64,000 bases of DNA from Eubacteriales bacterium (GTDB taxonomy: Bacteria; Bacillota; Clostridia; Oscillospirales; SIG627). Below the pieces are notes generated by a model, which worked only from the letters and a program-made list of their open reading frames with translations, had not been told where the DNA came from and did not search any database. Shown in pieces: positions 30,909 to 58,015 of this stretch (position 1 is its first letter; each line of letters starts with the position of its first letter). The translations under genes and the position numbers were made by a program. The stretch is taken from the NCBI GenBank assembly GCA_045541915.1, contig JAZQJZ010000039.1, positions 13,253 to 77,252 of the forward strand, written 5' to 3'.

Positions 30909-33900
30909 ATGGTCACAAGAAAGAAAATGTCCATGGATGGTAACACCGCTGCGGCGCACGTTTCCTATGCGTTCACCGAAGTGGCTGCCATCTACCCCAT
31001 CACTCCCTCCAGTGTTATGGCTGAATTGACCGACGCTTGGTCTGCCACAGGACTGAAGAACATCTTCGGCGAAGAAGTAAAAGTTACCGAAATGCAGTCT
31101 GAAGCAGGTGCTGCCGGTACCGTTCACGGCTCTCTTGCCGCCGGTGCTCTCACCACCACCTTCACCGCATCCCAGGGACTTCTTCTGATGATCCCCAATA
31201 TGTATAAGATCGCCGGCGAACTTCTTCCCGGTGTCATCCACTGCTCTGCACGCTGCGTTGCTTCTCACGCGCTGAACATCTTCGGCGATCACAGTGATAT
31301 CTACGCTTGCCGTCAGACCGGCTTTGCTCTTCTTGCCAACACCAATCCCCAGGAAGTTATGGACCTTGGCGCAGTGGCACACCTTCCCGCCATCAAGGGC
31401 AGAGTTCCTTTCCTAAACTTCTTTGACGGTTTCCGTACCTCTCACGAGATCCAGAAGATCTCCGTTTGGGAGTACAAGGAACTGGAAGAAATGATCGATA
31501 AGGACGCTCTGGCTGCCTTCCGCGCAAGAGCTCTCAATCCCGAGCATCCCGTTCTCCGCGGCTCCGCTGAAAACGGCGATATCTTCTTCCAACACAGAGA
31601 AGCCTGCAACCGTTACTATGACGAGCTTCCCGCCATCGTGGAAGAATATATGGATAAGGTCAATGCCAAGATCGGCACCAACTACAAGCTCTTCAACTAC
31701 TACGGTGCTCCCGATGCCGAAAAGGTTATCGTGGCAATGGGCTCCATCTGCGACGTAGCAGAAGAAGTTATTGATTATATGAACGCTCACGGCGAAAAGG
31801 TAGGTCTGGTAAAGGTTCGTCTGTACCGTCCCTTCCGCGCTGACAAGCTGATCGAAGCCATCCCTGCAACCGCGAAGAAGATTGCTGTTCTGGACCGCAC
31901 CAAGGAGCCCGGCTCTCTGGGCGAACCCTTGTACCTGGATGTGGTAACCGCTCTGGCTACCTCTGGCAAGAACGATGTGAAGATCGTAGGCGGTAGATAC
32001 GGCCTCGGTTCTAAGGATACTCCTCCCTCCAGCATTTTCGCAGTATACGAAAACCTGGATCAGGCAGAGCCCAAGAACGGCTTTACCATCGGTATTGTAG
32101 ACGATGTGACCGGTCTTTCTCTGGAAGAGAAGGCTGCTCCCGACACCGCTGCAGAAGGAACCATCTCCTGCAAGTTCTGGGGTCTGGGCGGCGACGGTAC
32201 CGTTGGTGCAAACAAGAACTCCATCAAGATCATCGGTGACCATACCGATAAGTTCATCCAGGCATACTTCCAGTATGACTCCAAGAAGACCGGTGGTGTG
32301 ACCATCTCCCACCTGCGCTTTGGCGACAAGGAGATCAAGTCCCCCTATTACATCACCAAGGCAAACTTTGTTGCTTGCCACAACTCCTCTTATATCCTCA
32401 AGGGCTATAAGATCGTTCAGGATGTGAAGCCTGGCGGCACCTTTATGCTGGACTGCCAGTGGAAGGCAGACGAGCTGGACGCTCACCTTCCCGCAGATGT
32501 AAAGGCTTACATCGCTCAGAATAACATCAAGTTCTACACCATTGATGCTACCACCATCGCTTCCAAACAGATCGGTAACCCCAAGGTAAAGAACACCGTT
32601 CTTCAGTCTGCATTCTTTGCTCTGGCTAACATTCTTCCTAAGGATGAGGCCATTGAATACATGAAGAAGATGGCTTACAAGTCCTACATCAAGAAGGGCG
32701 AGGCCATTGTGGAACTGAACTACAAGGCAATCGATGCCGGCGCCAACGCTATGGTTGAAGTTGCTGTTCCCGAAGCTTGGAAGAGCATTTCTGCCGGCGA
32801 AGAGAAGGCAAAGGCTACCGGTAAGAGAGCAGACCTTGTGAAGTTCGTCAATGAGATCGTGGAACCCGTTTCCCTGATGAATGGCGACTCTCTGCCCGTT
32901 TCCCGCTTTGCTGACTGCGCTGACGGTACCTTCCCCCAGGGCGCTGCCGCTTACGAGAAGAGAGGCGTTGCTGTTTCCGTTCCCGTATGGCACGCTGAGA
33001 ACTGCATCCAGTGTAACAACTGCTCCTTTGTATGTCCTCACGCCGCCATTCGTCCCTTCGCTCTGACCGCTGATGAGGCTGCCTCGGCTCCCGCAGAAAC
33101 CAAGTTCTGTGCAAAGCCCGTTCTGAAGACCGATTACAAGTTCACCATGGCGATTTCTCCTCTGGATTGTATGGGTTGTACCCTTTGTGTGAAGGCTTGT
33201 CCTGTTACCGCAAAGGCAGAAAAAGACGGCGCTCCCGAAAAGAAAGCCATCGAAATGGTACCCCAGGCAACTCAGCTGGATCAGCAGAAGCCCTTCGACT
33301 GGTGCGTTGAAAACGTAACCGAAAAGAAGGAACTGTTCAATGCTAAGACTGTAAAGGGCAGCCAGTTCAAGCAGCCTCTGCTTGAGTTCTCCGGTTCCTG
33401 TGCCGGTTGTGCTGAAACCTCTTATGCAAGACTGATCACCCAGCTGTTCGGTGAAAGAATGTACATCTCCAATGCAACCGGATGTTCCTCCATCTGGGGT
33501 GGCTCCGCTCCTGCAACTCCTTACACTGTCAACAATGCAACCGGTCGCGGTCCTGCTTGGGCAAACTCCCTCTTTGAGGATAACGCTGAGCACGGTCTGG
33601 GTATCCACCTGGGTCAGAAGACCATCCGCGAAAGACTGATCGGTTATGTTGAAAAGCTCCTGGAGACTGTGGAAGATGCCGATAAGAAGGCCATCGTTCA
33701 GGCTTACCTTGACACCAAGGACAACGGTGCTGAAAACGAAAAGGCAACCGACGCTCTGATTGCAATGCTGGAAGCTTGCGATTGCAAGAACGAATGGAAA
33801 GAAAAGATCCTTGCTGAAAAGGATTACCTGTCCAAGAAGTCCATCTGGATCTTCGGTGGCGACGGTTGGGCATACGACATCGGATTTGGCGGTCTGGATC

Positions 33901-34484
33901 ACGTTCTGGCCAGCGGCGAAGATGTAAACGTAATGGTATTCGATACTGAAGTTTACTCCAACACCGGCGGACAGGCTTCCAAGGCTTCCAACATCGGTCA
34001 GGTAGCTCAGTTTGCTGCAGCCGGTAAGGCCATCGGCAAGAAGAATCTGGCTGAGATCGCTATGAGCTATGGCTACGTTTACGTGGCTCAGGTGGCAATG
34101 GGCGCTGATATGAACCAGCTGCTCAAGGCTCTCACCGAAGCAGAAGCTTATCCCGGACCTTCTCTCATCATCGGCTATGCTCCCTGTGAAATGCACGGCA
34201 TTAAGGGCACCATGGCAAACTGCCAGGTGGAAATGAAGAAGGCTGTGGAATCTGGCTACTGGCAGATGTTCCGTTACAACCCCTTGGCAGAGAAGAAGCT
34301 CATCGTGGATTCCAAGGCTCCCACCGGTTCCTACCAAGACTTCATTAAGGGCGAGACCCGTTATGCAAGACTTGCTCAGCAGAACCCCGAAAGAGCTGCC
34401 GCTCTCTTCGATAAGGCTGAAGCTGCTGCTGCAGAGAGATACCAGAAGCTTACCAAGCTGGAAAAACTCTACGGCGAAGAATAA
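30909..34484 (+). CDS. nifJ: pyruvate:ferredoxin (flavodoxin) oxidoreductase
   Basis: 1191 aa. DGNTAAAHVSYAFTEVAAIYPITPSS, two 4Fe-4S motifs (CIQCNNCSFVCPH and CMGCTLCVKACP), TPP motif GGDGWAYDIG. Confidence 0.95.
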   Translation: MVTRKKMSMDGNTAAAHVSYAFTEVAAIYPITPSSVMAELTDAWSATGLKNIFGEEVKVTEMQSEAGAAGTVHGSLAAGALTTTFTASQGLLLMIPNMYKIAGELLPGVIHCSARCVASHALNIFGDHSDIYACRQTGFALLANTNPQEVMDLGAVAHLPAIKGRVPFLNFFDGFRTSHEIQKISVWEYKELEEMIDKDALAAFRARALNPEHPVLRGSAENGDIFFQHREACNRYYDELPAIVEEYMDKVNAKIGTNYKLFNYYGAPDAEKVIVAMGSICDVAEEVIDYMNAHGEKVGLVKVRLYRPFRADKLIEAIPATAKKIAVLDRTKEPGSLGEPLYLDVVTALATSGKNDVKIVGGRYGLGSKDTPPSSIFAVYENLDQAEPKNGFTIGIVDDVTGLSLEEKAAPDTAAEGTISCKFWGLGGDGTVGANKNSIKIIGDHTDKFIQAYFQYDSKKTGGVTISHLRFGDKEIKSPYYITKANFVACHNSSYILKGYKIVQDVKPGGTFMLDCQWKADELDAHLPADVKAYIAQNNIKFYTIDATTIASKQIGNPKVKNTVLQSAFFALANILPKDEAIEYMKKMAYKSYIKKGEAIVELNYKAIDAGANAMVEVAVPEAWKSISAGEEKAKATGKRADLVKFVNEIVEPVSLMNGDSLPVSRFADCADGTFPQGAAAYEKRGVAVSVPVWHAENCIQCNNCSFVCPHAAIRPFALTADEAASAPAETKFCAKPVLKTDYKFTMAISPLDCMGCTLCVKACPVTAKAEKDGAPEKKAIEMVPQATQLDQQKPFDWCVENVTEKKELFNAKTVKGSQFKQPLLEFSGSCAGCAETSYARLITQLFGERMYISNATGCSSIWGGSAPATPYTVNNATGRGPAWANSLFEDNAEHGLGIHLGQKTIRERLIGYVEKLLETVEDADKKAIVQAYLDTKDNGAENEKATDALIAMLEACDCKNEWKEKILAEKDYLSKKSIWIFGGDGWAYDIGFGGLDHVLASGEDVNVMVFDTEVYSNTGGQASKASNIGQVAQFAAAGKAIGKKNLAEIAMSYGYVYVAQVAMGADMNQLLKALTEAEAYPGPSLIIGYAPCEMHGIKGTMANCQVEMKKAVESGYWQMFRYNPLAEKKLIVDSKAPTGSYQDFIKGETRYARLAQQNPERAAALFDKAEAAAAERYQKLTKLEKLYGEE

Positions 34485-34527: not shown

Positions 34528-34590
34528 GTATCCGGAAACCCCCGCGCCAGTGGCGCGATTTGGGAAAGGGGCTCCGGCAAGAAGAAAAAG

Positions 34591-34741
34591 AGAAGGCGAT
34601 TGGGTAAAGGCCAGAATTTTGGCGAAGATCCGACGGGAGGCAGGTTGCCTCCCCTACAGGGTTTGGGGAAACCGAAGTATTGTTCTTTTTCTACGGGCTG
34701 TCGAGGACGTCAGCCCCTACAGAGTTTGGGGAAATCGGGAT
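34591..34741 (+). repeat. 151-bp direct repeat, copy A (two hairpin+CCCCTACAGrGTTTGGGGAAA subunits)
   Basis: Aligns base-for-base with 35144-35294 with a handful of substitutions. Contains hairpins gggaggcaggttgcctccc and gggctg-N10-cagccc. Confidence 0.85.
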
Positions 34742-34801
34742 TTTTAGTGAGAGAGGCGGACAATGTAACAATCGGGTTTTTGGTACAATATCGTGGCACA
34801 T

Positions 34802-35060
34802 TTGCCTTCCCCAGTGGGGGAAGGGGACCACGAAGTGGTGGATGAGGTATGCGAAACGCCAAAACAATATTTCTTCACATAAATTCGTTCGGCGATATCG
34901 TAGGGGAGGCAATCTGCCTCCCGTTCTGCGGCAAACCACAAAACATTCTTTTTCAAATATTCCGTTCTGGCATTGTAGGGGCCGACGTCCCCGACGGCCC
35001 GCCCTGGGGCAAAAAAACCAAAATTTCTGCCAAAACCCCGTTTGGGATTTCATAGGTGCT
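34802..35060 (-). repeat. REP-like palindromic units in opposite orientation
   Basis: Contains gtaggggaggcaatctgcctccc and gtaggggccgacgtccccgacggccc, which are reverse-orientation versions of the hairpin+CCCCTAC units. Also ccttccccagtgggggaagg...ggatgaggt, the reverse of the unit at 35098-35143. Confidence 0.6.
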
Positions 35061-35143
35061 GATTCCAAAGAAGGAGAAAACAAAAACCGGGAATTTTTTG
35101 ACACCTCATCCGTCAGCCTGCACCTGCCACCCTCTCCCGCTGG

Positions 35144-35294
35144 AGAAGGCGATTGGACAAAGGTCAGAATTTTGGCGAAGATCCGACGGGAGGCAGGTTG
35201 CCTCCCCTACAGGGGTTGGGGAAACTGAAGTATTGTTCTTTTTCTACGGGCTGTCGAGGACGTCAGCCCCTACAGGGTTTGGGGAAATCGGGAT
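35144..35294 (+). repeat. 151-bp direct repeat, copy B
   Basis: See copy A. Ends 5 nt before the left palindrome of the XRE/SLOG cassette. Confidence 0.85.
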
Positions 35295-35298
35295 ATAG

Positions 35299-35337
35299 TT
35301 TTGCGCAAAAAAAGACCGGAAAAACCGGTCTTTTTTT
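35299..35337. terminator. terminator-like palindrome, left bracket of cassette 1
   Basis: ttttgcgc-aaaaaaa-gaccgg-aaaaa-ccggtc-ttttttt. Abuts the XRE stop codon at 35338-35340. Confidence 0.8.
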
Positions 35338-35679
35338 CTAATTTCCTTTGAATTGATCCATTTCCTTGAGGATTCTCATGATTCGCTCTTGATCCTCCTG
35401 GCTTTTGGCCAATAAAAACTCATAGCATTCAAGAGGCAAATTTGGCTGGGAATCACACTTTTCTCCACCAAGGTTTTCAAGTAGCTTGGAAAGAGAAACG
35501 TTTAACGAAGAAGCAATTTTTTCGATACTTTCCAAGGTGGCGTTCTTTTCTCCGCGCTCCAATTGACCGATATAGGTTGGGTGACAACCGGCAAGCTCGG
35601 CCAACTTTTCTTGACTAAAACCCAGTTTTGTTCTGTAATTTCGGATCCGTTGCCCTACAATTTTTGCTAAATCTTTCAC
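35338..35679 (-). CDS. XRE-family HTH transcriptional regulator with a ~45-aa C-terminal extension
   Basis: 113 aa. HTH_3 pattern GFSQEKLAELAGCHPTYIGQLERGEKNATL. GTG start 5 nt after a GAGGTG RBS. Confidence 0.85.
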   Translation of the reverse strand: MKDLAKIVGQRIRNYRTKLGFSQEKLAELAGCHPTYIGQLERGEKNATLESIEKIASSLNVSLSKLLENLGGEKCDSQPNLPLECYEFLLAKSQEDQERIMRILKEMDQFKGN

Positions 35680-35734
35680 AAAATCACCTCTATATTAGAG
35701 TCTATAAATATTAGCGGGAATATTCCACAGACTA

Positions 35735-35763
35735 TTGATATTGATAATTTAGAGGTATATACT
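35735..35763 (+). promoter_or_regulatory. promoter candidate for the SLOG gene of cassette 1
   Basis: TTGATA (35735-35740), 17-nt spacer, TATACT (35758-35763). The -10 overlaps the left arm of an 11-bp inverted repeat (35761-35771 / 35789-35799). Confidence 0.4.
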
Positions 35764-35814
35764 ATAAGCACCGGCGCTTTGTTTTTTTGTGCTTATAGTG
35801 TTTGAGGTGAAACA

Positions 35815-36294
35815 ATGGATCCAAAGTATACTTGTTGTGTTTTTGGTCACAGAAACATAGAGAAAAGTGAATCGTTAAGGGCGAGACTTTATTGCGTTAT
35901 GGAAGAACTGATACGGAAAGAACGGGTTGAGACTTTCCTGTTTGGGAGCAAAAGCGCTTTCAACGATCTTTGCCATGCCGTCGCAACAGAGTTGAAGGAG
36001 AAGTATCCACACCTTAAACGAATTTATGTGCGAGCGGAATATCCTCATATTAGTGAGCAGTATCAGGATTATCTTTTAGGACTTTATGAGGATACTTATT
36101 ATCCGGAAAAGATCTTGGCCTCGGGAAAAGCAGTTTACATTGAGCGCAACTATGAAATGATTCATCAAAGCCGGTTTTGCATTGTTTATTATGATGAAAA
36201 AAAGACAGCGGTCGAAGGAAAAAGCGGAACGAAAATCGCCCTCGAATACGCTATAAAAAACGGAAAACGTTTGATCTTATTGCCTTCTCTCTAA
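35815..36294 (+). CDS. DUF1273/YpsA-like SLOG-fold protein
   Basis: 159 aa. N-terminal CCVFGHRN (family pattern C.FTGHR), TFLFGSKSAF loop, C-terminal KSGTKIALEYAIKNGKRLILL (family pattern GGT...YA...GK.I.N). GAGGTG RBS. Confidence 0.6.
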   Translation: MDPKYTCCVFGHRNIEKSESLRARLYCVMEELIRKERVETFLFGSKSAFNDLCHAVATELKEKYPHLKRIYVRAEYPHISEQYQDYLLGLYEDTYYPEKILASGKAVYIERNYEMIHQSRFCIVYYDEKKTAVEGKSGTKIALEYAIKNGKRLILLPSL

Positions 36295-36296
36295 CC

Positions 36297-36336
36297 TTTT
36301 TGCGCAAAAAAAAGACCGGTTTTTCCGGTCTTTTTT
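36297..36336. terminator. terminator-like palindrome, right bracket of cassette 1 (loop inverted relative to the left copy)
   Basis: ttttgcgc-aaaaaaaa-gaccgg-ttttt-ccggtc-tttttt. Same flank and arms as 35299-35337, but the loop is ttttt instead of aaaaa. Confidence 0.8.
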
Positions 36337-39684: not shown

Positions 39685-39719
39685 AAAAAAGAGGTGTGAG
39701 AATTCACACCTCTTTTTTT
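39685..39719. terminator. bidirectional terminator between convergent genes
   Basis: aaaaaagaggtgtga-gaat-tcacacctc-ttttttt. The MFS stop codon lies inside the 3' arm. Confidence 0.8.
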
Positions 39720-43480: not shown

Positions 43481-44650
43481 ATGGAAAAGGTACGTTACGG
43501 CATCATCGGCCTTGGAAACCAGGGCAGCACCTACAATTTGAAGATTTTTGACAGAGACAAGGTGGAAAACGGAGTGGTCACCGCCCTTTGCGATAACGAT
43601 CCGGAAAAGATCCGCATCATGAAGGAAAAGACCCAAAACCAATCCATCACCTATTTTGAAGACTATAAGGAAATGCTCGACTCCGGCCTTTGCGATGCGG
43701 TTTTAATTGAAACGCCCCATTACATTCACCCGGAAATCTCGATGGAGTGCTTCAAGCGCGGTATTCATGTGCTCTGCGAAAAGCCGGCAGGCGTTTATGC
43801 CGACCAGGTACGGGAAATGAACGAAGCAGCCGAAAAGACCAATTCCCTTTTCGGTATGATGTTCAATCAGAGAACCAATTGCAACTATCGGAAAATGAGA
43901 GAAATGGTCCTGGGCGGTGAAATCGGAGAAATTCAGAGAATCACCTGGATCATCACCGACTGGTTCCGCACTCAGACCTATTACGATTTAGGTCAGTGGA
44001 GAGCCACCTGGTCCGGAGAGGGCGGCGGCGTTCTCATCAACCAGGCTCCTCACCAGCTGGATCTGGTGCAGTGGATCATCGGTCAAAGCCCCAAATCGGT
44101 CAACGGCTTCTGCAAGTACGGACACTGGCACGATGTAGAGGTGGAGGACGAGGTTACCGCATATCTGGAATATGAAAACGGCGCCACCGGTGTGTTCATC
44201 ACCACCACCGGCGAAGCACCCGGCACCAACCGCCTGGAAATTTCCGGCACCAAGGGAAAGCTTCTCTGCGAAGGGAAGAATTTGATGTTCTATCGCAATG
44301 CCCAGGATAGCCGGGAGTACTCCAAAACCTCCCCGGAAGCCCATAAAAAGCCTGATGTGGAAGTGATCGAAGTGGAGACCGACGGCAAGAATCCCAAGCA
44401 CGCCGGCATTATCAATAACTTTACCAATGCCATTCTGGGCAAGGAAGAGCTCTTTGTGGATGGCAGAGAGGGAATCCGCGGCGTGGAGCTGATGAACGCC
44501 ATCGAATATTCCGGCTGGATGGGCGGCATCAAGGTCACCCTTCCCGTGGACGGCAAACAGTACCTGGAGGAATTGAACCGCCGCAGAGCCACCTCCCGTG
44601 TGAAGGAAAAGGTGGAGGCCAAGGTTCTGGATACCTCCAACAGCTATTAA
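43481..44650 (+). CDS. Gfo/Idh/MocA-family oxidoreductase
   Basis: 389 aa. Rossmann YGIIGLGNQG and the EKP motif in VLCEKPAG. Confidence 0.85.
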   Translation: MEKVRYGIIGLGNQGSTYNLKIFDRDKVENGVVTALCDNDPEKIRIMKEKTQNQSITYFEDYKEMLDSGLCDAVLIETPHYIHPEISMECFKRGIHVLCEKPAGVYADQVREMNEAAEKTNSLFGMMFNQRTNCNYRKMREMVLGGEIGEIQRITWIITDWFRTQTYYDLGQWRATWSGEGGGVLINQAPHQLDLVQWIIGQSPKSVNGFCKYGHWHDVEVEDEVTAYLEYENGATGVFITTTGEAPGTNRLEISGTKGKLLCEGKNLMFYRNAQDSREYSKTSPEAHKKPDVEVIEVETDGKNPKHAGIINNFTNAILGKEELFVDGREGIRGVELMNAIEYSGWMGGIKVTLPVDGKQYLEELNRRRATSRVKEKVEAKVLDTSNSY

Positions 44651-44653
44651 AAT

Positions 44654-44687
44654 AAAAAGATGTGTGGAAAATCCACACATCTTTTTT
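44654..44687. terminator. terminator-like palindrome, left bracket of cassette 2
   Basis: aaaaagatgtgtggaaaatccacacatctttttt. Identical 34-mer recurs at 45452-45485. The SLOG stop codon overlaps its T-run. Confidence 0.85.
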
Positions 44688-45138
44688 ATATTTTCTCCAG
44701 TGGAAAGCTTCCCAAGTTGATAATTTTAATGTTTTTCTTTTTTGCTTTTTCAATATAAGTGTAGGTGTTGGAAATAGGATTTTCTAAAAAGCAAACAATA
44801 AAATCAACGCGGTTCAGCATAAAATGGTTTCGTTTGGAGATTGCAAAGCGTTTTGGCGTTTTTGAAATGCAGTCGGGAAAAATGGTTTTTTGGAGGTCAT
44901 AATAAATGGAATTCTTTTTTTGATTTAAATAGGCTAACACCACCTTGATTTCAATGCTGTGTTTTTCTTCAAGGGAGCATAAAACTTCATAAGCAGTTTT
45001 GTCAAATCTTCCGTGAGTACCTACGAAAAAAGTATGAACATTTTCATTGATAATCAAATTTTCAATCACTGAAAATAAGGCTTTTCTCAAATCATCTGGA
45101 CAATTTCTATGTCCGAAAAAAGCACACGCCGCCATCAT
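44686..45138 (-). CDS. DUF1273/YpsA-like SLOG-fold protein, diverged paralogue of 35815-36294
   Basis: 150 aa. MMAACAFFGHRN, HTFFVGTHGRFD loop, C-terminal NTYTYIEKAKKKNIKIINL. GAGGTG RBS sits 2 nt upstream of the first ATG (45138-45136), so the second ATG (45135-45133) is the more plausible start. Very AT-rich. Confidence 0.55.
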   Translation of the reverse strand: MMAACAFFGHRNCPDDLRKALFSVIENLIINENVHTFFVGTHGRFDKTAYEVLCSLEEKHSIEIKVVLAYLNQKKNSIYYDLQKTIFPDCISKTPKRFAISKRNHFMLNRVDFIVCFLENPISNTYTYIEKAKKKNIKIINLGSFPLEKI

Positions 45139-45235
45139 ATCACCTCTTTTATTCCATCCATTTTAAGGGAATTCCCCTTAAAAGTCAATAAGGCATCATC
45201 CCTTAAGGCATAATTTATTAGAAGGGGTGATAAGG

Positions 45236-45448
45236 ATGTTTCATAGAATTCGCGATTTGCGCGAGGACCGGGATCTGACGCAAACACAATTGGCCCGGTA
45301 TTTGCAAATTCATCAAACAACTTATTCCGATTATGAAATTGGGAATTTGAATGTTCCCGTGGACATTCTCATCAAATTGGCAAAGTTTTATGATACCAGC
45401 GTTGATTATCTTGTGGAATTGACAAACGAAGCCAAGCCATATCGATAA
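45236..45448 (+). CDS. minimal XRE-family HTH protein
   Basis: 70 aa from ATG 45236, after a GAAGGGG RBS. HTH_3 pattern LTQTQLARYLQIHQTTYSDYEIGNLNVPVDILIKLAKFY. Confidence 0.8.
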   Translation: MFHRIRDLREDRDLTQTQLARYLQIHQTTYSDYEIGNLNVPVDILIKLAKFYDTSVDYLVELTNEAKPYR

Positions 45449-45451
45449 AAC

Positions 45452-45485
45452 AAAAAGATGTGTGGAAAATCCACACATCTTTTTT
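45452..45485. terminator. terminator-like palindrome, right bracket of cassette 2
   Basis: Identical to 44654-44687. Lies between the XRE stop (45448) and the convergent gene's stop (45496). Confidence 0.85.
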
Positions 45486-45495
45486 TTGCTTTGGT

Positions 45496-47415
45496 TTATT
45501 TTTCCCCTTCGGGAACGAATCTTCTGAGGGTTCTTCTGTAAACGGCCTGGAATACCACCGGGTCGAATACTTCCTGGATGCCATCTTCCATTTCGTACAT
45601 TGCGTCCTTCAAAATGGTTTTCTTTTCCAGTCTTTCCTCTTCGTTGTCCTTGCCGCACAAATAAGACATTTGAGCATCGGCAAACTTCTTGGTCAGCTCT
45701 GCGTGATAAACCAGAAGCTTCCAGGAGGGATTGGTATCGCCCTTTGTGGCCAGGTGCTCGCGGGAGAAGGCGTCCACCCATTCCTTTGCTTCGGTCAGTC
45801 TCTTTTCCACACCCTCGGGATCCAGTTCCTTTTCCTTGCGTACGTAGGGCGGATCAAAGAGAACGGAAAGACGGGACAGATATTTCTCTACGACCTTGGC
45901 ATCTTCTCCGAATGCGGCGGTAAAGTACTCGTCGCAAATATCGGAAAACTGGCTCTTCTTATCCCAAAGGCCCTTGGCCATAGCATAGAAGGGAAGGCCG
46001 GTGGGAAGGAAAGTGCGCTGCAGCTGGCAGCTCATCATACCGTTCAGGCCGATCTTATCCAGGTTGACCATATCCTTGTGGAGAATACGGGCACATTCAT
46101 AGTAACCGGGATCCAGGTGATGGTCCCACATCAGGTGATAGTCAAAGTCAAAGCTATCGGAATTGATCTGCTCGTTCTGCCAACGTTCCAGTCTTGCCAG
46201 GTTGTCTTCCACAGCTTTGGGCATTTTCAGCTGGTTTCTCACATAGGGAGTAAGCTCCACCTTCTTGTTGGGATCCACATCGGAGAAGGCGTTGGTGTAG
46301 GTACGGGTGATGGGGGCAAACATCAGAACAAAGCGATCGGGATTCTTGATCTTTTCCTGTTCGGGAGCCCAGAGCAGGTCTACATAGATCAGACAAACGA
46401 TCTTGGTATCCACGCCGGCAGCAGTGAGCTTTTCGTCCAATTCATTGAGCATGGTCACGTAAAAGTCTGCCGGGGTCTTCTTTTGACATTCGGGACATTC
46501 GCAGTGGTTGTTCTTGCCGTCTGCCAGCCAAAAGTGAAGGAAGTTCACATCGCTGTGCTTCTGGCAGTATTCCACAATGCCGCTTGTCATCTTATCTCTC
46601 ACCACGGGGTTGGAGTAGCAAAGGTTGGTATTCAGGGCAACGTCTCTCCAAAGGGCGCGCTTGCCGTCGATCTCTGCCAGGTACTGAACCGCATCGGCAG
46701 GAACCTGGGAGGGATCCATTTTGGTCCAGCCGCTGGCGGGAATGCCAAAGGGATCGCAGGTCCAACCGTGACCGGTGGCGTGATAATCAAGGCCGCGAAG
46801 GACGATCTCCTCCTCCAGACCCTTCCACATATGAGCCACATCCTGGTCGGTCACCGGGGTCAGACCCTTTTTGCTGTAGGGATCGTTATAAAAACGGGTG
46901 AAGAAAATGGTGGGAATGTGGAACTGCATAAAATAGCCGTTCATTCCGACCTTGGGCAGATAATCGATCATATTGCGCACGTGCTCATAGGAAACGGCAC
47001 CTTCAATGCAAACACCGCGGTGGCGGTAGGAAGCCTTTTCCTGAACCGAGGCGCAAAGATCCTCTTTCTTCAATTTTTTCTGGGGAATTTCCTCTCCCTC
47101 TGCGCCGGGGCGCAGGAAGCGGCAGCCCAATTCAAACAGGAAGCGGTATGCACCGATGAGAACGGCTCTTTCGCTGGAACCGGTGATGATGCCGGCGCCG
47201 TTTTGGATCTCAATGCGAATCTCGTCCAGGCCGCTCTTCTCCACCGATCCGTCCAGACCCAACCAAAGAATGCGTTCAAGCTTCGGGTCAATTTCGTCAT
47301 AAATACGGGTATCCACAAACAGGGTGGGGTCCATTTTCTTTAGGATACGGGTCAATTCCTGAGCCGCGTACCCAAGGGTTTTGTTGGTGCCGATTCTGCC
47401 AAGGGTAATGTTCAT
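45496..47415 (-). CDS. DUF4838-like (GH20-related fold) protein, putative glycan-degrading enzyme
   Basis: About 639 aa from ATG 47415, after AAAGGAGAG. Cys cluster HCECPECQKK and overall layout resemble DUF4838 proteins as I remember them. Assignment is tentative. Confidence 0.45.
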   Translation of the reverse strand: MNITLGRIGTNKTLGYAAQELTRILKKMDPTLFVDTRIYDEIDPKLERILWLGLDGSVEKSGLDEIRIEIQNGAGIITGSSERAVLIGAYRFLFELGCRFLRPGAEGEEIPQKKLKKEDLCASVQEKASYRHRGVCIEGAVSYEHVRNMIDYLPKVGMNGYFMQFHIPTIFFTRFYNDPYSKKGLTPVTDQDVAHMWKGLEEEIVLRGLDYHATGHGWTCDPFGIPASGWTKMDPSQVPADAVQYLAEIDGKRALWRDVALNTNLCYSNPVVRDKMTSGIVEYCQKHSDVNFLHFWLADGKNNHCECPECQKKTPADFYVTMLNELDEKLTAAGVDTKIVCLIYVDLLWAPEQEKIKNPDRFVLMFAPITRTYTNAFSDVDPNKKVELTPYVRNQLKMPKAVEDNLARLERWQNEQINSDSFDFDYHLMWDHHLDPGYYECARILHKDMVNLDKIGLNGMMSCQLQRTFLPTGLPFYAMAKGLWDKKSQFSDICDEYFTAAFGEDAKVVEKYLSRLSVLFDPPYVRKEKELDPEGVEKRLTEAKEWVDAFSREHLATKGDTNPSWKLLVYHAELTKKFADAQMSYLCGKDNEEERLEKKTILKDAMYEMEDGIQEVFDPVVFQAVYRRTLRRFVPEGEK

Positions 47416-47579
47416 TTTTCTCTCTCCTTTTATCACTTCGATGATGATCATTCAGCGAGGGTTTCCACCTTTTTTGTCATCGTAACAAAGAAAAAATGAC
47501 AAAAAAGTGGACTTGATTGAAGCATAACACAGTTTATTTCATAAGTCAAGGAATGTGGAAAAAGTACGGTGAAAAAGAC

Positions 47580-49670: not shown

Positions 49671-49739
49671 ACTTCTCCCACACTCCTTTTTTCATCCTTA
49701 TATAGGGATCATAGCCCAAAAAAGGCCCTTTTATGCAAG

Positions 49740-49767
49740 AAAAAAGCACTCGAAAGAGTGCTTTTTT
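49740..49767. terminator. bidirectional terminator after glf
   Basis: aaaaaagcactc-gaaa-gagtgctttttt. The same 12-nt arms recur at 57988-58015. Confidence 0.8.
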
Positions 49768-57931: not shown

Positions 57932-57987
57932 CCGAAGAGTGAAGCCGGAACCCATTCAAAAAAATGCAAACGGTTTTTCATAAAAAC

Positions 57988-58015
57988 AAAAAAGCACTCA
58001 TTTGAGTGCTTTTTT
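57988..58015. terminator. bidirectional terminator
   Basis: aaaaaagcactc-attt-gagtgctttttt. Confidence 0.8.

Follow-up and report, generated by a model that had tools for sequence, protein, structure and literature searches.

Small gene pairs that resemble toxin–antitoxin or defence systems spread widely without mobility genes, and how they do so is largely unexplained. The only signature described for such movement is insertion with long target duplication, which has been without a mechanism since 2000. In this class, restriction–modification (RM) gene pairs are accompanied by repeats of more than 30 bp at gene 3′ ends (Nobusato et al. 2000; Furuta, Abe & Kobayashi 2010, PMC2853133), and inserted RM systems show 46-bp duplications across gene 3′ ends, low-GC inserts, no mobility gene and an unexplained mechanism (Furuta 2010, PMC2853133). 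Here we describe two small cassettes in a 64,000-nt stretch of a Clostridia genome (Eubacteriales bacterium, GenBank assembly GCA_045541915.1, contig JAZQJZ010000039.1, positions 13,253 to 77,252; hereafter the window), each carrying an XRE-family repressor gene and a divergent SLOG-like gene between two copies of a terminator-like hairpin. We focus on cassette 2 and compare it with cassette 1 and with loci from other genomes, which are given L-numbers. Insertion with long target duplication is the closest known class, and the cassettes refine it. As in that class, a selfish-looking pair without transposase or integrase lies between direct repeats longer than 30 bp and has a GC content below that of the genome. 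Unlike in that class, the repeat is a palindromic intrinsic terminator whose loop is often flipped between copies, the hairpin recurs with homologous cassettes at unrelated loci and is perhaps not target-derived, and the cargo is an XRE–SLOG pair, not an RM system.

The first-pass annotation of this DNA had reported a duplicated 34-bp palindrome around cassette 2, and the pair proved exact. The sequence AAAAAGATGTGTGGAAAATCCACACATCTTTTTT occurs at positions 44654–44687 and 45452–45485, both times on the + strand and in the same orientation, with 0 mismatches. These are the only two copies in the 64-kb window, even when up to 3 mismatches were allowed, and dinucleotide-preserving shuffles gave 0 matches in 100. 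In each copy, a perfect stem of 15 bp, to which the A/T tracts contribute, encloses a loop of 3 nt, and the folding energy is about −20 kcal/mol (−19.7 / −20.4 kcal/mol for the left copy; z about −6 to −7). Both copies score as terminator-like on either strand. When 1 mismatch was tolerated, the repeat grew by 6 nt leftward (TAAAAyAAAAAG) to 40 bp; in both copies this extension is made up of a stop codon and an A-run, perhaps by coincidence.

The two copies are fitted closely between gene ends. On the left, the oxidoreductase gene ends with TAA at 44648–44650 (+ strand), and the SLOG stop codon (TAA, 44686–44688, − strand) shares 2 nt with the left copy's T-run, an overlap that had been annotated. 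On the right, the XRE stop codon (TAA, 45446–45448) lies 3 nt ahead of the right copy, and the DUF4838-like gene on the − strand ends with TAA at 45496–45498. The outer neighbours converge on the insert, with stops at 44650 and 45496 as the annotation had placed them. Given the GC-containing stem-loop, the T-runs on both strands and the adjoining stops of convergent genes, the left copy is predicted to be a bidirectional terminator common to the oxidoreductase and SLOG genes, and the right copy one common to the XRE and DUF4838-like genes. The insertion would be transcriptionally insulated, because both copies are predicted to terminate four converging transcripts in this way; this would be a way for an inserted module to arrive pre-insulated from its neighbours' transcription. 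Removing one repeat together with the insert leaves, as had been proposed, a standard terminator shared by two convergent genes (...AGCTATTAAAAT + hairpin + TTGCTTTGGTTA..., about 47 nt), an arrangement that a related hairpin at 39685–39719 displays. The insert itself (about 44688–45451) holds the two divergent genes and no others, and its GC content is 35% against 51% for the window. Pfam scans took in 46 of the 49 non-overlapping window open reading frames (ORFs) of at least 110 aa, and none of the 46 contained a transposase or integrase domain, including Y1 transposase and tyrosine recombinase domains.

The window contains a second cassette of the same layout at 35299–36336 (GC about 40%). 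Its left repeat (35299–35337) reads TTTTGCGC followed by A7-GACCGG-AAAAA-CCGGTC-T7, and its right repeat (36297–36336) reads TTTTTGCGC followed by A8-GACCGG-TTTTT-CCGGTC-T6. The repeats are direct, because the asymmetric TTTTGCGC stands on the same side of both copies, and the loop between the stem arms is inverted. Between them lie a 113-aa XRE-family repressor (35338–35679, − strand; Pfam HTH_3, E=4.5e-16) and a 159-aa SLOG/YpsA-like protein (35815–36294, + strand; Pfam YpsA, E=4.5e-6, 27.2 bits, below the cut-off of 27.7). That cassette 1 carries the same signature with an unrelated palindrome had been recognised in the annotation, and our comparison bears this out. The SLOG proteins of the two cassettes are 27% identical and represent two subfamilies: SLOG1, the cassette-1 type, with more than 4500 homologues (named in the source as SLOG family, DUF1273 or YoqJ-like), and SLOG2, the cassette-2 type, with 84 proteins.

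We then compared 14 cassette contexts, the window's two and 12 further ones that were retrieved. The divergent pair of a helix-turn-helix (HTH) gene and a SLOG gene is kept across the retrieved contexts, and the host neighbours differ at every locus. Related cassettes mostly lie between convergent genes and have a lower GC content than their own flanks. DNA homology to cassette 2 (about 70%; L081, L083 and L093) spans 44680 to 45441 and ends at both stop codons, and at all SLOG2-type loci a bidirectional hairpin lies 0–5 nt from each stop codon. For each context, the sequence outside the XRE stop was tested against the sequence outside the SLOG stop, with shuffled controls. Significant direct similarity between the left and right hairpins was found in 5 of the 14 contexts, namely cassette 2 (z=22), cassette 1 (z=10), L155 (z=5.6), L082 (z=5.2) and L095 (z=4.6), with L094 borderline (z=3.4). 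Bracketing of XRE–SLOG cassettes by similar hairpins is therefore recurrent. L018 holds a frameshifted SLOG1 relic, with no repeats at its flanks, that was uninformative.

This recurrence bears on whether the structure was created during assembly. The contig belongs to a metagenome-assembled genome and the cassette's GC content is very different, as would be seen if a foreign fragment had been joined at a common palindromic k-mer. An artefact of this kind would have to account for two cassettes with different hairpins on one contig, for the same architecture in independent assemblies (L082, L095 and L155–L160), for one related cassette with identical flanks in 15 contigs from different samples, and for gene ends and terminators that fit to the nucleotide. 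We regard it as scarcely credible.

The paired hairpins were compared with respect to orientation. Their asymmetric parts (the AAA loop of cassette 2, TTTTGCGC of cassette 1 and ATAAAC...TTTAATTAT of L095) run in the same direction, which is expected from duplication of one site and not from two independent gene terminators. The L095 copies read ATAAACAAAA-GCGACCC-AAAC-GGGTCGC-TTTAATTAT and ATAAACAAAA-CGCACCC-GTTT-GGGTGCG-TTTTTAATTAT; their flanks run in the same direction, the loop has been flipped, and changes in one stem arm are compensated in the other. In the right copy of L082, the loop remnant is T-rich, that is, flipped relative to the left copy. Altogether, loops are flipped in three of the four assessable pairs (cassette 1, L082 and L095). 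Among 9–10 strains of one locus no loop polymorphism was found, so the orientation appears to be determined by the mechanism of duplication, not by frequent later flipping.

A local event without any mobility mechanism would also give rise to paired hairpins. Under this explanation the hairpins are ordinary cassette terminators, one of which was duplicated onto the opposite side of the cassette through slippage, gene conversion or ends-in homologous recombination during transformation and was kept for insulation. It agrees with the terminator-like character of both copies and their placement exactly after the stop codons, with the different hairpins on the two sides at most related loci, and with the compensated stem differences of L095, which are those of palindromes under structural selection. 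It requires, on the other hand, independent duplications in at least five loci and in two cassette subfamilies, and it leaves unexplained both the conservation of stems across loci whose coding DNA is about 68% identical and the occurrence of hairpin types on either side of a cassette. We consider it improbable.

Hairpins were also found to be shared between loci. At L082, where the SLOG protein is 59% identical to that of cassette 2 and the host genes are EamA and DUF711, AAAGATGTGTGGA-AAAA-TCCACACATCTTT is present on both sides of the cassette. At L176, with a SLOG protein 60% identical and a different host context, AAAAAAAGATGTGTGA-GAAATATT-TCACACATCTTTTTTT follows the SLOG gene and is present on the SLOG side only. 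The GATGTGTG hairpin, with the stem GATGTGTGGA / GATGTGTGA, borders diverged homologous cassettes at these two loci with unrelated host neighbours. Across these cassettes, coding-DNA identity is only about 68–70%, and the SLOG tree does not group them as sisters. Because the same stem borders homologous cassettes in unrelated host loci, the hairpin appears to be specific to the cassette lineage. If the GATGTGTG family is taken to be a resident terminator type with a frequency of about 3% (3 of roughly 35 terminators in the window), the probability of three independent hits on it by a process with no preference among terminators would be about 1e-3. Whether the hairpin arrives with the cassette or the cassette selects this family of sequences, the association is sequence-specific, not terminator-general.

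Further hairpin types are shared in the same way. L176 (XRE side) and L094 (SLOG side) have a TCCCGACT stem in common, and L081 (SLOG side) and L093 (far XRE side) a GCTGTGC stem; of the pairs formed by 91 background terminators, only 0.1% agree in 8 nt or more. No GATGTGTG...CACACATC hairpin was found in about 1 Mb of other Clostridia loci, the exact 27-mer of the cassette-2 hairpin had 0 matches in metagenome contigs, and a scan of IMG/VR with the hairpin pattern returned 3 unrelated phage hairpins only. A relaxed 10-nt stem pattern gave 55 metagenome matches from about 15 independent loci, which is at chance level with none beside XRE or SLOG genes, and we discarded it as uninformative.

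These comparisons bear directly on the model of the first-pass annotation, in which a resident host terminator was hit by a mechanism specific for structure or for terminators in general, and the whole target was duplicated as the cassette inserted. The repeat, the low-GC two-gene insert and the convergent site all stand. The reconstructed empty site has a standard arrangement, and the direct repeats of more than 30 bp, the lack of a mobility gene and the low GC content resemble the RM insertions (Furuta 2010, PMC2853133). The unrelated hairpins of cassettes 1 and 2 also suit a general mechanism, as does the fact that another element, Gut-1, does enter terminator loops with unrelated stems. 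The flipped loops, with no polymorphism among strains, suit an intermediate of the hairpin or cruciform type, and a host stop codon falls within the L095 repeat. What found no support is that the hairpin was the host's own and that terminators or structures were targeted generally: the same hairpin stem accompanies homologous cassettes in two non-homologous host loci, hits on so small a terminator family would seldom arise by chance, and further hairpin types are common to several cassette loci, which ties them to the cassette lineage. We judge the host-terminator explanation unlikely, although it deserves serious consideration.

The hairpin thus probably accompanies the cassette lineage, as a sequence that the cassette either carries or specifically targets, and probably did not originate from duplication of a host terminator. 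Our preferred but tentative reading, which we hold to be quite possible, is that cassette 2 is an att-like, hairpin-bounded, non-autonomous module that was acquired horizontally and has no integrase, its hairpins resembling attL and attR. In agreement with such a site, direct repeats of one sequence bracket the element in cassette 2 and at L082, and the same sequence is found at an independent insertion on one side of L176. The copies within the cassette-2 locus (34/34) are more alike than copies from different loci, which fits a pair regenerated at each insertion. A cassette that carries or recognises the hairpin would recombine at a terminator position or adjacent to one, using an activity of the host or one supplied in trans, possibly by way of a circular or hairpin intermediate, and integration would duplicate the site and leave a complete hairpin on each side. 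Recombination between the copies could later delete the cassette, leaving a solo hairpin like that at 39685–39719. Candidate activities would be a trans-acting recombinase, host structure-specific nucleases with extruded hairpins or cruciforms as substrates, or short-homology ends-in recombination; such nucleases would naturally yield random loop orientation.

The solo hairpin at 39685–39719 is a bidirectional terminator (AAAAAAGAGGTGTGA-GAAT-TCACACCTCTTTTTTT) between the converging genes for Band7 and MFS proteins, and by its stem, GAGGTGTGA, it is a member of the cassette-2 hairpin family. One compensated pair and an indel in the loop distinguish it from the nearly identical L176 hairpin; it could be the footprint of an excised cassette or a potential target. 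Another solo terminator was observed at L002 (10108–10143), between convergent genes for an MBL-fold protein and a glucosamine-6-phosphate deaminase-like protein. A 10–12-nt stem (CTGTGCAGAAA; CTGTGCAGAA(A)) is common to it and to the hairpin on the SLOG side of a cassette from a different genome, L081. We rejected a candidate third cassette at 49737–49767 and 57985–58015, where two terminators have a common arm, AAAAAAGCACTC: the 8 kb between them has a normal GC content, and a 6-nt GC stem easily arises by chance. These two sites are 8.2 kb apart, have the loops GAAA and ATTT, and enclose glycosyltransferase, Glf-like and PFK-like genes.

Several observations weigh against reading the hairpins as attachment sites. 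The hairpins on the two sides are dissimilar in 8 of the 14 contexts, and hairpin types do not track the SLOG tree; L093, the nearest relative of L082 (76%), is without the GATGTGTG hairpin, and the cassette 1 hairpin was found at no other SLOG1-type locus. The repeat at L095 takes in the stop codon of the host adh_short gene, hinting at a target-derived repeat, whereas the presence of the hairpin at L082 and L176 with unrelated host neighbours speaks against such an origin. No empty site, excision circle or polymorphism was observed, and no recombinase was identified among the scanned window ORFs. The hairpins are, moreover, textbook terminators, so a role in recombination is something we infer. 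Any model of these cassettes must cover whole-terminator direct repeats of 34–40 bp, loop inversion, compensated stem divergence, hairpin types found on either side or on both sides, solo copies and the lack of a mobility gene in cis.

The attachment-site reading can be taken further. XRE–SLOG modules of gut Clostridia might form a new class of integrase-less mobile cassette whose attachment site is a terminator hairpin; integration through a hairpin or cruciform intermediate would rebuild terminators on both sides, excision would leave solos that seed new sites, and the mobility factor could be the DprA/ShosA-like SLOG protein or a host structure-specific nuclease. We offer this as speculation that is rather unlikely to hold. 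If true, attachment at terminator hairpins would account for direct repeats of whole palindromes and for random loop orientation, and would supply a mechanism for insertion with long target duplication. The cassettes provide a recurrent case with a clear anatomy: what has been duplicated is exactly a bidirectional terminator hairpin, the loop often lies in opposite orientations in the two copies, and the hairpin sequence goes with the cassette lineage across unrelated loci. They turn a vague phenomenon into specific hypotheses, namely att-like hairpin recombination or hairpin-capped intermediates. In the literature on terminator duplication or terminator targeting, we found nothing specific.

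A different kind of mobility was also considered. In single-stranded transposition, an HUH/Y1 transposase of the IS200/IS605 type, or one like the REP-associated tyrosine transposases (RAYTs), would act in trans on terminal hairpins, and the cassettes would be palindrome-associated transposable elements (PATEs). Direct hairpins at both ends and the lack of a classical short target-site duplication agree with this, as do repetitive extragenic palindromic (REP)/REPIN-like elements with a 5′-GTAG head (GTAGGGGAGG...CCTCCC), which were found solely beside XRE–SLOG cassettes, in four contexts (about 1.4 Mb examined). REPs of RAYT transposases are characteristically headed by GTAG. Recognition of a subterminal hairpin on one strand, as in IS200/IS605-type PATEs or REP–RAYT systems, is not what the cassettes display: the hairpins are perfect, symmetric and bidirectional with A/T tracts, and the flipped loops of cassette 1, L082 and L095 (three of four pairs) are incompatible with it. 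In addition, no Y1 transposase is present among the scanned window ORFs, and the REPs of cassette 1 lie outside its repeats. We consider this route very unlikely. The REP-like elements of cassette 1 stand in a 765-nt non-coding stretch (34530–35294) between the terminator of the pyruvate:ferredoxin oxidoreductase-like gene (30909–34484) and the left repeat of the cassette. It contains three 5′-GTAG-headed elements (GTAGGGGAGGC-loop-GCCTCCC) at 34635 (−), 34900 (+) and 35188 (−), and a 152-nt direct repeat (34590–34741 and 35143–35294, 96% identical). The strict REP pattern was seen only beside XRE–SLOG cassettes, at cassette 1, L082, L093 and L161–L167.

Other systems move small modules between hairpin-like sites, and we regard them as functional analogies. 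Integron cassettes, including those in clusters of attC sites lacking integron-integrases (CALINs), are small and delimited by hairpin sites whose sequence varies by cassette; a cassette's own site and its neighbour's may flank it, and the recombinase is encoded outside the cassette. Sites of the attC type are imperfect palindromes with extrahelical bases and conserved R/L boxes, and their cassettes are co-oriented, mostly promoterless and arrayed beside an integron integrase gene and attI. Unlike attC sites, the hairpins described here are short perfect palindromes with A/T tracts and no extrahelical bases, and the cassettes stand singly between core genes, have their own divergent promoters and are accompanied by no IntI or tyrosine recombinase in the scanned window ORFs. 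To our knowledge, integrons are essentially absent from Firmicutes. In cis-mobilizable elements (CIMEs), integrative mobile elements exploiting Xer (IMEX) and Acinetobacter pdif modules, direct or oriented, partly palindromic repeats of 25–40 bp bracket a small, often toxin–antitoxin, module that has no recombinase of its own and is moved in trans. Here, in contrast, the repeated sites have the form of terminators and belong to at least three unrelated hairpin families, and no cognate tyrosine or serine recombinase or Xer-type core was identified in the window. As a mechanistic analogy only, staggered integration at a palindromic unit of about 30–37 bp duplicates the whole unit in Cas1–Cas2 CRISPR repeat duplication and in casposons; the present locus differs in having no cas genes, an insert of about 760 bp and no array.

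The cargo of cassette 2 was characterised by domain and structure searches. The SLOG gene (44686–45138, − strand) is an ORF of 150 aa, of which the public gene call begins at the second Met (45135; 149 aa, P0121). Its product matches Pfam YpsA (PF06908) with E=1.8e-5 and 25.3 bits, below the gathering cut-off of 27.7. The AF2 model (pLDDT 93.8, pTM 0.88) gave ShosA (8zva, E=1e-5), DprA (4ljr) and LOG (5wq3) as top Foldseek matches, and this predicted structure places the 150-aa protein in the SLOG superfamily, with a SLOG Rossmann-like fold. The modelled fold is shared with YpsA/YoqJ and with ShosA of the ShosTA defence system; unlike in ShosTA, the SLOG protein is paired with an XRE repressor and not with a phosphoribosyltransferase toxin. 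A PDB sequence search with the SLOG protein returned nothing significant. PADLOC had no match for either SLOG protein and assigned the XRE proteins to generic HTH models only, and a search of Rfam gave nothing above threshold at either cassette.

The XRE-family HTH repressor of cassette 2 (70 aa; 45236–45448, + strand) is divergent from the SLOG gene, matches Pfam HTH_3 with E=4e-15, and is 73–83% identical to the XRE proteins of related cassettes. In the divergent promoter region, the palindrome TTTTAAGGGAATTCCCCTTAAAA (45161–45183) overlaps the predicted −35/−10 elements of the SLOG gene, whose promoter-like site lies at 45188–45160 on the − strand. The palindrome is kept in L083, L093 and L094 and is visible in the L176 sequence as well; it is probably the operator of the XRE repressor. 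YpsA overproduction inhibits cell division, and the YpsA family is tied to conflict systems (PMC6459960). Because of these links, it is a reasonable inference that the cargo of cassette 2 is a repressor-controlled toxic or defence-type effector.

We also recorded variation around the gene pair at other loci. At L093 (2938–3902), a stack of four small HTH genes, encoding 70, 75, 80 and 71 aa, lies upstream of the SLOG gene, with a duplicated upstream segment ahead of two of them. The 75-aa HTH gene is common to L093 and L082 (89% identity), and the 80-aa gene of L082 matches by size and Pfam family only. The repressor side of these cassettes appears to gain modules by accretion. At L169 (1–5556), an HTH–SLOG pair lies in an apparent defence island with AbiGi/AbiGii and an NgoFVII-like restriction enzyme, and with an adjoining serine recombinase (Resolvase and Recombinase domains). 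At L081 (431–2113), a large serine recombinase with TnpW and ParB is located 2 kb from the cassette.

Cassette 2 is flanked on the left by a Gfo/Idh/MocA oxidoreductase gene (43481–44650, + strand; Pfam) and on the right by the gene for a DUF4838-like protein (45496–47451, − strand; Pfam DUF4838, E=4e-12), both convergent on it. The region around cassette 2 is core chromosomal DNA, and the Pfam scan of the window found core genes, including dxs, recN, tyrS, mfd, rny and genes for sugar enzymes; the pyruvate:ferredoxin oxidoreductase-like gene was not among the scanned ORFs. Exact-protein look-ups gave no match for the oxidoreductase or for the 150-aa SLOG ORF, the public SLOG protein beginning at the second Met. 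In 5.8 billion proteins, the oxidoreductase had one 100% match, its own contig, and the next best was 76% identical; the homologue search gave just one contig for the source species. When GTDB representatives were scanned with the oxidoreductase, 80 loci were obtained (best 76% identical), with DUF4838 downstream in none, and hence no empty site. In these relatives an upstream xylose-isomerase-like gene remains syntenic, whereas the downstream gene does not. SLOG profiles found 4 weak loci for SLOG2 and none for SLOG1 in IMG/VR, and phage and plasmid collections gave no cassette match except one plasmid at 25% identity. Because these searches were nearly empty, the cassettes are not evidently phage- or plasmid-borne.

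Finally, we observed insertions of another kind within terminators. Between the convergent genes at 6931–7716 (+) and 8111–9151 (−), the loop of a bidirectional terminator (7728–8110) is split by a non-coding insert of about 359 nt (7740–8098), which separates the arms AAAAAGACACCC (7728–7739) and GGGTGTCTTTTT (8099–8110). The insert is made of short hairpins spaced by GTGATAT/ATATCAC and contains the Rfam motif Gut-1 at 7998–8068 (−; 62.5 bits against a gathering threshold of 50), with a weaker copy at 7888–7976 (+). At L082 (4561–4938), the loop of the right GATGTGTGGA hairpin is likewise split by an insert of about 350 nt with a Gut-1 motif (4602–4673, 55.7 bits). This insert is 74% identical over 132 nt to positions 7938–8068 of the window and represents a second, independent loop insertion with an unrelated stem. 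From these observations, the Gut-1 'RNA' would seem to belong to a mobile element with terminator loops as its targets.

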